From: Gammaproteobacteria bacterium
GTDB lineage: Bacteria; Pseudomonadota; Gammaproteobacteria; Eutrophobiales; Eutrophobiaceae
Reading direction: 5' to 3'
Assembly: GCA_965116495.1 (NCBI GenBank)
Contig: OZ220696.1
Span: 2,944,001-3,008,000, forward strand
DNA length: 64,000 nucleotides
Shown here one piece after another: positions 7,004 to 43,127 of the stretch. Position 1 is the first letter of the stretch. Every line of letters starts with the position of its first letter. A program made the translations under genes and the position numbers. Below the pieces are notes generated by a model. The model worked only from the letters and a program-made list of their open reading frames with translations. It searched no databases and was not told the DNA's origin.

Positions 7004-7099
7004 TTTTTGTTTATCATGTAAAATCAATGACTTATACTCATTGATTTTGACGATACATCCCTGTATCGTAAGAACCTCTGACTTAATCAGAGGTTCTTA
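6944..7099. mobile_element. Hairpin-rich MITE-like element with IS5-like ends
   Basis: Five back-to-back perfect inverted repeats (6954-6978, 6982-7019, 7020-7048, 7050-7069, 7069-7099); ends GGAAACTCCGAACAAGT / ACTTAATCAGAGGTTCTTA are imperfect inverted repeats. Confidence 0.6.
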
Positions 7100-13097: not shown

Positions 13098-13127
13098 CGG
13101 TTCGGATTATCATACTGCTGAAACAAT

Positions 13128-13151
13128 GGGGACGGATTTAAATCTGTCCCC
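13128..13151. repeat. 24-bp palindrome GGGGACGGATTTAAATCTGTCCCC
   Basis: Near-perfect palindrome between convergent genes; second copy at 14477-14500. Confidence 0.8.
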
Positions 13152-13161
13152 TTGCTGTTGA

Positions 13162-14371: not shown

Positions 14372-14476
14372 GGTAATGCTCTCTTAACTGTACAAAGGGA
14401 GGCAGATTATACACTGATCCGGTATTTGTTGACAACACACACCTCACCTCCTTGTCCTGGTTCCCTCCAGGGGAAA

Positions 14477-14500
14477 GGGGACGGATTTAAATCCGTCCCC
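14477..14500. repeat. Perfect 24-bp palindrome GGGGACGGATTTAAATCCGTCCCC
   Basis: One base different from 13128-13151; lies between radC and rpmB. Confidence 0.8.
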
Positions 14501-22826: not shown

Positions 22827-22990
22827 TAACCCCCATTTCTCAGTGGGTGATGCGATGATCGCGCCGGATTTTTGCCCTCAGCGGGTGCCTGCGACCGAAA
22901 GCATAGCCGTAGCTATGGTTGAGAGAGCACGTGCCCGCTGAGGGCAAAAAGACAAGCGAGGGCGCGTCACCCAGTGAGAAATGGGGGTTA
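22827..22990. mobile_element. MITE, 164 bp, TA-bounded, 24-bp terminal inverted repeats
   Basis: TAACCCCCATTTCTCAGTGGGTGA ... TCACCCAGTGAGAAATGGGGGTTA (one mismatch); internal stem; homologous to 29661-30123. Confidence 0.85.
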
Positions 22991-28675: not shown

Positions 28676-29617
28676 TTACCGCAACTTCCCGGCTATACAG
28701 TCCATCACCTTTCCTGCAATATCATAGCTGTAGATCCGTTCCAGTTCCCTTACGCAGGTCGGGCTGGTTACGTTGATCTCGGTCAGGTAATCGCCGATAA
28801 CATCCAGACCGACGAAGACCAGTCCCAGTGCGCGCAACCGCGGTCCCACCTGTTCGCAGATCCACTGGTCGCGCTCGGACAGGTCAATTCCCTTGCCGGT
28901 GCCTCCCACGGCCAGGTTCCCGCGTATGTCACCGGATTTGGGAATGCGCGCCAGCGCATGTTCCATTGGGCGGCCGTCAACCAGCAGGATGCGTTTATCA
29001 CCCTGCGCGATTGCCGCCAGGTATTGTTGCGCCATAATAAAGCCCTGCGAGTTCCGGGTCAGGGTTTCTACGATGACGTTCCTGTTGGGGTCCTCCTTGT
29101 CAACCAGGAAAACCGAGGCGCCGCCCATGCCATCCAGGGGTTTGAGAACAACCTGCCCGTGCTGTTCCAGGAAAGCATGTATCTGCCGTGTATTACGGCT
29201 GATCAGGGTGGGAGCTATACACTGCGGAAATTGGGTGATGAAGGCTTTTTCATTGACGCTGCGCAGTGCGGCCGGGTTGTTGACGACAAGCGTGCCGCGC
29301 GCTGTCGCGTGTTCCAGGATATAGGTCATGTAGACGTATTCCATGTCAAAGGGCGGATCCTTGCGCATCAGGATCACGTCCAGATCCGAGAGAGCCAACT
29401 CAACCGAACGCTGGAATTGATACCAGTCTGACGCATCATCCGCGACCGTCATGAGGCGTGCATTTGCCCGCGCCGTGCTGCCGCTGAGATACACGTCGTC
29501 CATCTCCATGTAATGTATTTCCCATTCCCTGCGTTGAGCCGCCAGCAGCAATGCCAGGGTCGTGTCTTTTTCGACCTTGATCCCGGCAATAGGATCCATG
29601 ATTACGCCCAGTTTCAT
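28676..29617 (-). CDS. gshB: Glutathione synthetase
   Basis: MDPI, MRKDPPFD, KPLDGMGG, RGNLAVGG, EINVTSPT. Confidence 0.97.
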   Translation of the reverse strand: MKLGVIMDPIAGIKVEKDTTLALLLAAQRREWEIHYMEMDDVYLSGSTARANARLMTVADDASDWYQFQRSVELALSDLDVILMRKDPPFDMEYVYMTYILEHATARGTLVVNNPAALRSVNEKAFITQFPQCIAPTLISRNTRQIHAFLEQHGQVVLKPLDGMGGASVFLVDKEDPNRNVIVETLTRNSQGFIMAQQYLAAIAQGDKRILLVDGRPMEHALARIPKSGDIRGNLAVGGTGKGIDLSERDQWICEQVGPRLRALGLVFVGLDVIGDYLTEINVTSPTCVRELERIYSYDIAGKVMDCIAGKLR

Positions 29618-29660: not shown

Positions 29661-30123
29661 TAACCCGCATATCTCACCAATTCGCTTGTTACTATCCGAA
29701 ACGTCAATATGCTGTCAATAAGTTATAGTAATATTCACACTATGTCATCATTACAGACTGCGCTTGATGCGCCCTCGCTTGTCTTTTTCCCGCCAGCGGG
29801 CACGTGTTCATTGCGTCCATCCCTGGACGCAACCCTTCGGGCGGCTATCGCCGTGCAAATCGGCTGTCCTGCCGATTTGTCCCTCAACCAGACAAATCTG
29901 CCTGGAGCAGATTTGGACGCTCGCAGAGCGCCCGCAGGGGGCGCCCCAAGGATGGGGCGCATCAACTACGGCTATGCTTTCGGTCGCAGGCACCCGCTGG
30001 CGGGACAAATCTGCCAGGAGCAGATTTGGACGTCCGCAGGACGCCTGCAGGGTGTGCGCCACGGAAGGCGCACATCTAAAATCCTGCGCGATCATCGCAT
30101 CAATTGGTGAGATATGCGGGTTA
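29661..30123. mobile_element. Composite MITE, 463 bp, perfect 22-bp TIRs, with three nested hairpin modules
   Basis: TAACCCGCATATCTCACCAATT ... AATTGGTGAGATATGCGGGTTA; backbone is the reverse complement of 22827-22990, interrupted at ~29810-29881, ~29891-29965 and ~30004-30077. Confidence 0.85.
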
Positions 30124-30310
30124 GTGTATCCAGATTGTATGAGAGGTCAAAGTCCTTATACGCGGCAGACAGGTTCGCCACAAAGCCGTCCGGTGCATTG
30201 TTGCCATTCAGGGTTTGACCGGGAAGCCGGAAACGAAGTGGCGTGCAAGGAATTTGAAGACATCCGGAGAAATAACATAACATGATGAAACTAGGGAGAA
30301 ATGCGGGTTA

Positions 30311-31246
30311 ATGGCCGGTTCAGGCCTGCGCATTGTTACAAGAGAAAGCCCCCTGGCCATGTGGCAGGCGCAATTCGTGCGCGCGCGCTTACAGGAAATG
30401 CATCCCGGCCTGCGTGTGGGGATAAAGACCGTAAAGACGACCGCCGATCGATTTTTGCACAAATCGCTGGCGGAAATGGGCGGCAAGGGCGTGTTTGTCA
30501 AGGAACTGGAGCAGGCGCTGCTGAATGACGAGGCCGACCTTGCCGTTCATTCCATGAAGGACGTGACAGTAGATCTCCCTGCCGGCCTGGCGATAACGGT
30601 AATCATGCAAAGAGAGGACCCGCGGGATGTGCTGGTGGCAAGCCGTTATCCGTCCCTGGCCGAATTGCCGGCCGGCGCCAGGGTCGGGACATCCAGTCTG
30701 CGCCGGCAGTGCCAGCTCAATGCAGCCTGTCCGGGACTTGTCCTGCAGGACATTCGCGGCAACGTGGGGAGCAGGCTGCAAAAACTGGATAACGGGACTT
30801 ATGATGCGTTGATCCTGGCGGCCGCCGGGATGAAGCGGCTCGGCAAGGAGGACCGGATCAGCGTCTACCTTGATGTGGAAGACATGTTGCCGGCTATTGG
30901 ACAGGGCGCGCTGGGGATCGAAACCAGGGCAGGTGATGCGCAGGTGTTACAGTTTGTCCAGCCCCTGAACCACGAACCGACCCGGGCGTGCGTGAGTGCG
31001 GAGAGGGCCTTGTCCCGGAAGCTCTACGGCGGCTGTCACCTGCCGCTCGCGGCCTACGCGGAGATTTCCGGCGAAGGCCTCTCCATGACTGCGCTGGCAG
31101 GTTACCCGGACGGTTCAAGGATAGTGAAAGACAGTATTGCCGGTGCCGTGGGCCAGGCCGAGCAGCTTGGGCAGGAGCTGGGGGAGCGGTTGCTGCAGCG
31201 GGGCGCGCATGAGATCCTGGTTGAGGTGATGGGCAATGCGGGATAG
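30311..31246 (+). CDS. hemC: Hydroxymethylbilane synthase
   Basis: TRESPLAMWQ, GKGVFVKELE, VHSMKD, GTSSLRR, RGNV, GGC. Confidence 0.97.
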   Translation: MAGSGLRIVTRESPLAMWQAQFVRARLQEMHPGLRVGIKTVKTTADRFLHKSLAEMGGKGVFVKELEQALLNDEADLAVHSMKDVTVDLPAGLAITVIMQREDPRDVLVASRYPSLAELPAGARVGTSSLRRQCQLNAACPGLVLQDIRGNVGSRLQKLDNGTYDALILAAAGMKRLGKEDRISVYLDVEDMLPAIGQGALGIETRAGDAQVLQFVQPLNHEPTRACVSAERALSRKLYGGCHLPLAAYAEISGEGLSMTALAGYPDGSRIVKDSIAGAVGQAEQLGQELGERLLQRGAHEILVEVMGNAG

Positions 31247-33187: not shown

Positions 33188-34053
33188 GGATTTTGTTTAC
33201 CCTGCTCACCGTGTTGCTTCTCGCAGTCGCGCTGGGGTGGTGGCTGCAGGACTCCCCGGGCGCGGTGATCTTTACCTACAAGGAGTGGATAATTCAGACC
33301 AGCCTGGTCGTATTCGCGCTTGTCTCCGGCGTCCTGTTCCTGGTGGTTTATGTTTTAGTGCGGTTGTTGACAAAGATATTACACTTGCCGGCGGATTTAC
33401 GGCGCTTGTCTGAAAGCAGGCGGCGCGGTTTGATTTCGGCGGAGCAGGCCAGGGCAAAGCAGTTGACCTTCCAGGCCGGGTTGCTGCGCCAAGCCGGGAA
33501 TGGGCAGGATCGGGTTGCGTTGAAAAATGCCTGGCGGAGTATTCCGAACAAGTTGAAAAAGGAGAGTTTCCTGATCGGCGTTTACGTAAGGGAACGCTTG
33601 CGCCAGGGGGACAGCAGTGATTGTGAGGCCTTGTTGCGGCGCGCGCTCAAGCGCCAGTGGGACCCGGAACTGGTTCGGTTGTACGGGCTGGTTGAAGGCA
33701 GAAACCTGAAACGGCAACTGGAGTTTGCCGGGAACTGGCTGTCGCAGTTCCCCCGGGATGCGGCATTGTTGCTGACCCTGGGGCGCTTGTGTAAAAAAAA
33801 TCACCTGTGGGGAAAGGCCAGAAGCTACCTGGAACAAAGCATACACGCGCGCCCGGATCCAGCAACCTGCCAGGAACTGGCAACCTTGCTTGAGCAACAG
33901 GGAGAGCACGCCGCCGCCAGGTCGTATCTCCAAGAAGGCCTGAACCTGGCAACCGGCGCGCACGAGACCGGTGAAACAGGGACGGCGCTGGTAACAGGCG
34001 AGAGAGAATCAACTGGTGAAAAATCCGGGCTAGTCGGCGTTTTGCCCGGCTGA
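33184..34053 (+). CDS. hemY: HemY-like TPR membrane protein, internally shortened
   Basis: HemY N-terminal TMs and C-terminal LLLTLGRLC...LWGKARSYLE; only 289 aa. Confidence 0.82.
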   Translation: MRILFTLLTVLLLAVALGWWLQDSPGAVIFTYKEWIIQTSLVVFALVSGVLFLVVYVLVRLLTKILHLPADLRRLSESRRRGLISAEQARAKQLTFQAGLLRQAGNGQDRVALKNAWRSIPNKLKKESFLIGVYVRERLRQGDSSDCEALLRRALKRQWDPELVRLYGLVEGRNLKRQLEFAGNWLSQFPRDAALLLTLGRLCKKNHLWGKARSYLEQSIHARPDPATCQELATLLEQQGEHAAARSYLQEGLNLATGAHETGETGTALVTGERESTGEKSGLVGVLPG

Positions 34054-43025: not shown

Positions 43026-43127
43026 GGTTAACACCTCACAGTCAGTGAATGAAGGGATCTCTGATTATCAGAGTTACCTGCGGTACAGGGATGTACCTTC
43101 ACCAGGTCATTCAGCAGGACTTACGTT

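Follow-up and report, generated by a model that had tools for sequence, protein, structure and literature searches.

The interval between gshB and hemC in this gammaproteobacterial genome holds a two-level nested mobile element, a 459-bp MITE whose ends are of the IS1380 type and in which three copies of a 72-nt hairpin module are nested. The element is a strain-variable insertion. The explanation that we favor, with slightly better than even confidence, is that a gene-less MITE with IS1380 ends hosts three separate modules that likely insert by themselves and whose transcript is predicted to bind CsrA. The same degree of confidence extends to the view that the gshB-hemC copy is a passenger and not a conserved regulator of gshB or hemC.

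The window is the whole 64-kb stretch of DNA that was analysed (G000:C1:2944001-3008000), and positions without a G000:C1 prefix refer to it. A previous sequence-only reading had described a nested repeat here, consisting of a MITE backbone with three hairpin modules between gshB and hemC. All of the hairpins and loops that it quoted were found in the sequence, and family models identified both genes. The features are:

22829..22988, minus strand: module-free deletion form of the MITE (alignment, inverted-repeat and filled/empty comparisons)
28676..29617, minus strand: gshB, glutathione synthase (443 bits, cut-off 272); start 46 nt from the MITE
29663..30121, plus strand: composite MITE, 459 bp, IS1380-type ends; TA target duplicate at 29661-29662 and 30122-30123
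29663..29682, plus strand: left terminal inverted repeat (TIR), 100% complementary to the right one; the motif brackets five IS1380-family transposase genes
29683..29764, plus strand: AT-rich segment, present in the full-length MITE and lost from the 22827 copy; blast gives 10 hits in the genome
29691..29718, minus strand: outward-facing sigma-70-like site within the MITE, facing gshB (10/12 matches, consensus match only)
29713..29725, plus strand: IHF-site-like motif, one mismatch
29789..29800, plus strand: left arm of the internal palindrome, pairing with 29993-30004 (sequence, fold); same palindrome in the 22827 copy
29808..29879, minus strand: module A, inverted, 72 nt (filled/empty copies, covariance model 86.9 bits, fold)
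29893..29964, plus strand: module B, 72 nt (filled/empty copies, covariance model 87.3 bits, fold)
29993..30004, plus strand: right arm of the internal palindrome, with module C inserted at its foot
30006..30077, plus strand: module C, 72 nt (filled/empty copies, covariance model 80.8 bits)
30102..30121, minus strand: right TIR, same motif as at the ends of five IS1380-family elements
30123..30150, minus strand: sigma-70-like site facing gshB, putative promoter (9/12 consensus matches; kept in 9/12 congener loci)
30311..31246, plus strand: hemC, hydroxymethylbilane synthase (355 bits, cut-off 164)

The 463-nt stretch has perfect inverted ends of 22 nt, and the region folds more stably than shuffled versions of itself (z = -9.8; 0 of 100 shuffles equally stable). 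Modules A and B sit within the internal palindrome of the MITE. Removal of all three modules leaves a 241-nt core that is 80-87% identical to six module-free genomic copies. As had been noted from the sequence, what is left corresponds to the 22827 element in reverse complement, with 136 identities over 158 aligned bases, plus an AT-rich segment. By alignment, the 22827 copy is a deletion form that lacks this segment, and the full form is 239-241 nt long. The IHF-like motif has its best match at a fixed offset (50-52) in 19 of 20 left arms, with 0-2 mismatches to the IHF consensus, and is a putative IHF site. The two ORFs that cross the MITE match no NCBIfam family. Solo TIR-like remnants of the MITE were identified at 30291-30310 and 34013-34032; one of these overlaps the hemC ribosome-binding region, and a MITE remnant at the congener locus L324 has the same endpoint.

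From sequence comparison the backbone is an IS1380-type MITE and not an ERIC, because its TIRs are common to full IS1380 elements and ERIC profiles gave no match. A scan of metagenomes with the TIR recovered at least 128 stretches. Among the matches listed, five elements of 1.6-1.75 kb have the TIR at each end, and all five encode IS1380-family transposases (396-414 bits, cut-off 180). The backbone would have been moved by an IS1380 transposase acting in trans; a search for the cognate transposase with one of the five elements as query gave no match in this genome. Also among the matches listed are many unrelated short metagenomic inserts (50-300 nt) that have the IS1380-type TIR on both sides (L197-L321), and this diversity points to a large set of MITE families derived from the IS1380 group.

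Other parents were considered and rejected. ERIC arm profiles, built from seven enterobacterial loci, found no match below E 0.4 in this genome, the backbone profile matches no ERIC locus, and the 127-bp consensus and terminal repeats of ERICs were not found in the element. The IS630-like and Y1 elements of this genome have no TIR in common with the backbone. An IS1634-family element (G000:C1:452726-454820 and seven more near-identical copies) has ends loosely similar to those of the MITE. It was set aside because of this loose similarity and a 4-bp YTAR duplication in 7 of its 8 copies, whereas the IS1380 elements match exactly; cross-mobilisation by IS1634 is nevertheless conceivable. We also identified a 1625-bp IS with CTAG ends in six identical copies (G000:C1:1101911-1103535 and five more).

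The backbone family is abundant across the genus, and a profile of nine module-free copies found 36 loci in this genome, fragments included. The empty site TTAG is present between gshB and hemC in 11 of 12 congener loci. In addition, joints in sequencing runs X6 and X8 skip 461 nt at this place, in spanning contigs that differ from the window by 5-14 letters over about 380. The 461 nt are accounted for exactly by the 459-bp element plus the duplicated TA. Since X6 and X8 lack them, the insertion is variable between close strains. TA flanks both sides in about 12 of 20 full MITE copies. A 4-bp target duplication was rejected for the MITE: 6 of 20 copies and 2 of 5 full IS elements agree with it, and the empty TTAG site does not.

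The MITE landed directly behind the -10 box of the sigma-70-like site at 30150-30123. If this site is the gshB promoter, the mRNA gains a hairpin leader of about 460 nt with module A in sense. The locus offers a natural comparison of filled and empty sites immediately behind this putative promoter of gshB. A conserved role at gshB-hemC is disfavored because the presence of the insertion is patchy.

Comparison of filled with empty copies elsewhere in the genome, which the sequence-only reading had proposed as a way to define the ends, gave exact limits of 72 nt for each module. Three modules are present, as had been described; the leading GA previously counted as module sequence belongs to the target. 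The hairpins first noticed are real, although each module has four of them rather than two, with a GGA loop in hairpin 1 as well. Module A has all four hairpins, and the predicted CsrA-type sites in hairpin 4 lie at 29818-29825 (A), 29947-29954 (B) and 30060-30067 (C). Joints that skip exactly the 72 nt of module C occur in four of four sequencing runs, in contigs that possibly derive from other MITE copies.

An iterated module profile yielded 65 hits in the genome, some of them overlapping or partial, of which 55 could be parsed. These are preceded by GA in 29 cases, by CA in 24 and by AA in two. The MITE has four fixed module sites, known both filled and empty, and modules stand in them in either orientation. 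Also identified were modules in a second MITE family and in duplicated tRNA-Ser 5′ halves, as well as solitary, tandem and module-in-module copies. A second MITE copy with the same three modules is identical to the one studied here at 352 of 357 positions beyond the left 100 nt and at 72 of 96 within them. Given this identity, the three modules most likely arrived at gshB-hemC together with the MITE, judging from the alignment. The difference between the two parts implies that the composite moves as a unit and recombines with sibling copies. A module inside a MITE would thereby be multiplied passively and exchanged between copies through recombination. One copy of the 1625-bp IS has the same target as this second three-module MITE, at G000:C1:2696354.

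The second MITE-like family has about 11 copies (e.g., G000:C1 971182, 2364925 and 4238759) and partial relatives at window positions 7048-7081 and 43068-43101. It carries a module variant and a separate hairpin with a ACAGGGATGT loop; CsrA-consensus hairpins with this loop number about 25 in the genome. At G000:C1:1056138-1056600, three duplicated tRNA-Ser 5′ halves lie upstream of an intact tRNA-Ser-like gene, and each half is interrupted in the D-loop region by a module, one of them by two.

The module is not confined to this genome. A blastn search with module C gave short, weak matches in 6 of 5426 E. coli genomes. Of the two that were opened, one is the rrn spacer between terminators (5S rRNA to murB) and the other an insert in an ERIC. 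Both align across the whole 72-nt module, and the spacer has the same four hairpins, the two GGA loops and GA before its start. In an alignment of 35 sequences, which includes the E. coli rows (the first link to them being the independent blastn search), the share of cells that pair is 91.7%, and in 15 of 24 pairs both sides change. Covariation reaches 0.45, against 0.134 in shuffled and at most 0.098 in slid alignments, for a consensus structure derived with RNAalifold from the same 35 sequences.

The covariance-model scan that had been suggested for this and related genomes places the module in 75 of 151 genomes of class Gammaproteobacteria (one genome per family, 32 candidates scored per genome, genome G037 included in the tally). 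A pattern in which the loops of hairpins 1 and 4 were left free matched at least 120 loci from named genomes, as well as 17 from viral contigs; loop and host counts below refer to the 124 distinct copies among the matches listed. The 80 titles among those matches comprise Gammaproteobacteria, three Desulfobacterota or deltaproteobacteria, Mariprofundus and four unclassified records, and name no alpha- or betaproteobacterium. By a rough sorting of the copies among the matches listed, 13 lie in ERICs, 20 at tRNA T-loops, 6 in 5S remnants, 7 in the MITE described here and 78 elsewhere. The module is thus not specific to this MITE, and the earlier idea that it targets the MITE is not supported. 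ERIC-borne copies occupy fixed GA sites, with one to three modules per ERIC, and their hosts match the consensus in PMC2759123 (Table 1a). In prophage contigs (L010, L011, L019-L023 and L025), modules are found at overlapping stop-start junctions and end in ATGA, by which the downstream start codon is restored. Plasmids gave five partial, weak matches with module A by blastn.

No Rfam family covers the module in 20 homologous loci, and the match to a known Rfam family that might have explained it away was absent above threshold. A sub-threshold match at 30022-30074 is to the Xanthomonas sRNA sX7 (20.6 bits, cut-off 55, E 0.2), whose 3′ end resembles the last hairpin of the module.

Several observations indicate that the module behaves, as first proposed, as a second and independent unit. 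Filled and empty sites were identified in the MITE, at the joints and in transposase genes. In the latter, 10 loci were compared: removal of the module alone reopened the frame at four of them, and at the remaining six the comparison was not informative. A 2-bp target duplication was rejected for the module, since, of the 82 copies with a callable end (among the matches listed), only 12 have the same dinucleotide on both sides, a comparison in which the A preceding the module start is fixed by the search pattern. Hairpin 2 has a C-GNA-G loop in 56 of 124 copies and a GNRA or UUCG tetraloop in none (among the matches listed, with loops free in the pattern). GNA triloops have an unusual stability in DNA that they lack in RNA. 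Dinucleotide junctions, the lack of a duplication, tandem copies and DNA-type hairpins fit HUH/Y1 chemistry; the Y1 enzymes of REPs cleave single strands at a CT or CA dinucleotide and recognise bases in hairpin loops (PMC8266576). These features suggest single-stranded-DNA transposition of the module. By analogy, the module would insert independently, behind a GA or CA and in the form of folded single-stranded DNA, with an unlinked HUH/Y1-type enzyme moving it in a peel-and-paste manner. The head-to-tail junction of tandem modules would then be the circle junction.

Scans for such an enzyme close to the module were negative. No Y1 transposase (E 1e-12) was detected in 121 hand-picked ORFs from 257 candidate module-flanking ORFs, and none of the 65 module hits adjoins the three Y1 matches of this genome. 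The GTAG (or CGTC) tag at the hairpin foot is absent from the module alignment. Short GGGGAC/GGGGTC palindromes occur at window positions 13125-13153 and 14474-14500 and at G000:C1:403440-404450, 2326508, 137576 and 3717735. Palindromes of this type have been reported on the flanks of Y1 transposases (PMC3733652). Such arms accompany one Y1 gene of this genome, and similar repeats directly adjoin three or four modules; the palindromes are a lead for the missing module enzyme.

The conservation expected of CsrA-type sites in further copies was borne out. GGA is present in hairpin 1 of 116 and in hairpin 4 of 114 of the 124 copies among the matches listed, although the pattern did not specify these loops. 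The module thus has GGA in the loops of covarying hairpins, and its host here encodes csrA, at G000:C1:2274494-2274649. The E. coli homolog is part of RrB, which binds CsrA: the RNA co-purifies with it and binds in vitro at about 100 nM, and mutation of three GGAs, among them the two loop sites, abolishes the shift (PMC8144298). By analogy, the module transcript is predicted to bind CsrA through its two GGA loops. We propose that such binding would be needed for, or would favor, persistence of the module. The Salmonella CsrA CLIP table (PMC5207318), searched with 12 motifs, contains no recognisable module peak, and repeated or rRNA-linked reads were possibly excluded from it.

A different reading of the loops, which we consider doubtful, is that they are DNA sites of the transposase or recombinase of the module, in which case the match to CsrA and the binding of RrB would be incidental and any co-occurrence with csrA would reflect shared ancestry. 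Two similar loops at the two ends would suit a dimeric HUH enzyme that reads loop bases (PMC8266576), half of the hairpin-1 loops among the matches listed lack the A of the CsrA consensus, and the RrB phenotypes are weak. For the last of these, PMC8144298 describes modest, non-opposite effects in the same direction when rrA/B/F are deleted or overexpressed in vivo. Against it, 99 of the 124 copies among the matches listed have the full CA(N)GGANG in hairpin 4 (72 CANGGANG and 27 CAGGANG), and words of this kind fill Salmonella CsrA CLIP peaks in PMC5207318.

The distribution of csrA also bears on this reading. The module is present in 70 of 130 csrA-positive and 4 of 20 csrA-negative genomes of the class (p = 0.007). 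In the order of G123, it was found in 0 of 81 genomes, in a scan that had no positive control of its own but used the covariance model that worked in the class scan; csrA was found there in 1 of 80 genomes searched, weakly. This csrA-less order counts as one evolutionary event. The split recurs in a second phylum, that of a Desulfosoma genome, with the module in 8 of 41 csrA-positive (7 of 40 without the centre genome) and 0 of 39 csrA-negative genomes (p = 0.005), which argues against this reading. Both p-values overstate the case, because the genomes are related and not independent. In favor of DNA sites, the loops are intact in the module copy read from each of the four csrA-negative holders (n=4), three of which are fragmented assemblies (430-780 contigs); the fourth, G015, has a completeness rating of 100%. 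The strongest new lead of this analysis is that the module and csrA co-occur in two phyla.

Dependence on csrA would be explained most easily through an RNA step. It may be imagined that CsrA shields a short transcript, which is returned to DNA by a borrowed reverse transcriptase or an RNA-templated reaction. The strand polarity of GGA is strict (TCC is found in 2 of 124 hairpin-1 loops among the matches listed), 26 of the 124 copies among the matches listed lie in tRNA and 5S remnants, and processing of the homolog in E. coli yields a discrete short RNA (PMC8144298). We nevertheless judge spread through RNA to be unlikely. The loops of hairpins 2 and 3 are the DNA-type GNA triloops, the copies that were read have exact ends with neither 5′ truncation nor tails, and no reverse transcriptase was detected among the 121 flanking ORFs scanned.

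Still less probable is that modules are dispersed CsrA sponges selected by the host, and that the copy here regulates gshB or hemC. This genome has 121 stem-closed CA(N)GGANG sites, of which 38 are in modules and about 25 in the second repeat, and the Rfam RsmY and RsmZ models, run without a positive control, have no match in it. Module A would be in sense in the gshB leader if 30123-30150 is the promoter. However, the site is empty in 11 of the 12 congener loci and in two near-identical strains, modules can point either way, lie far from the start codons and in places interrupt genes, and the effects of RrB are modest (PMC8144298). That the module is now immobile everywhere, with all copies going back to a small number of ancient insertions that host repeats and recombination have multiplied, is very improbable: identical modules do recur at the same MITE sites and left arms have been swapped between copies, but 78 of the 124 copies among the matches listed lie outside the four recurrent host classes, and clean insertions are found in transposase and tRNA genes that still look nearly intact.

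We therefore return to a gene-less MITE with self-inserting modules. The module is likely mobile on its own and could represent a minimal form of DNA parasite, bound up with a regulator of its host. A bolder form, which we offer only tentatively and hold to be possible rather than probable, is that of a 72-nt single-stranded-DNA micro-transposon that ranges from Gammaproteobacteria into Desulfobacterota, parasitises MITEs, ERICs, tRNA remnants and transposase genes, and could not persist without CsrA, which would bind its RNA, with RrB, the ERIC inserts and the cores of tRNA-linked repeats (TLRs) as its footprints. If true, it would be among the smallest mobile units known, and repeats would supply about half of the strong CsrA-type hairpins in this genome. 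What moves the modules, and the reason that selfish DNA keeps sites for a host RNA regulator, are made testable.

The suggestion that this is an undescribed system stands in part. A unified mobile family was found neither in Rfam nor in the literature searched, but its pieces are already in print as RrB, ERIC inserts and tRNA-linked repeats. In the open-access literature, we found no paper that unites these three as one mobile unit or links such a unit to CsrA. This analysis adds the IS1380 host, loop counts free of search bias and the co-occurrence of the module with csrA in two phyla. ERIC inserts, TLRs and the rrnB inter-terminator RNA are joined into one structured family that lacks an Rfam model.

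Insertions of about 70 bp within ERIC repeats were reportedly described by Cromie et al. and by Sharp in 1997, and insertions within ERIC repeats reportedly also by De Gregorio et al. in 2005. The nesting of a module in the MITE follows the same logic, although the host here is not an ERIC. The modules share with RrB-type sequences and ERIC inserts the full-length alignment, the four-hairpin fold, two GGA loops, insertion after GA or CA and an end of the form T(N)A. RrA, RrB and RrF of E. coli lie in rrn operons between terminators T1 and T2, and module C matches by blastn with a full 72-nt alignment. In PMC8144298, whose supplements list RrB homologs, RrB is treated as an sRNA of Enterobacterales with a fixed place, and the words ERIC and mobile are absent. 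In contrast, the module is dispersed, nested in a MITE and class-wide, and the locus studied here is a MITE between gshB and hemC, not a T1-T2 interval with a duplicated 5S end. TLRs of E. coli are described in the introduction of PMC8144298 and scored low for CsrA in that paper. Among the matches listed, 20 of 124 module copies are at tRNA T-loops or duplicated 3′ ends and 6 in 5S remnants; the 18-19-bp copy of an upstream tRNA or rRNA 3′ end that marks TLRs is seen for other module copies and is absent at gshB-hemC.

CsrB/CsrC and RsmY/RsmZ have GGA hairpin loops in common with the module. They differ from it in that the module has two sites per unit rather than many per transcript, no Rfam match, and no promoter or terminator of its own that we could find. 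RU-2 of the YPAL/RU-2 repeats also has two GGA-loop hairpins (PMC2759123, Table 1b), and YPAL makes duplications of 3-26 bp (PMC2229807). REP/REPIN sequences mobilised by TnpA-REP (RAYT), as well as non-autonomous IS200/IS605 derivatives, are likewise short hairpin DNA with dinucleotide junctions, no duplication and tandem copies (PMC8266576). The module differs from REP/REPIN-RAYT in its four hairpins, its 5′-GA/CA target, the absence of the GTAG tag and the absence of a linked Y1 gene among the ORFs scanned. At the outer level, the MITE resembles the five IS1380 elements in its 16-19-nt TIR and TA-centred target. It differs from them in lacking a transposase gene, and an internal palindrome, an IHF-like site and a cargo of modules are particular to this MITE family.
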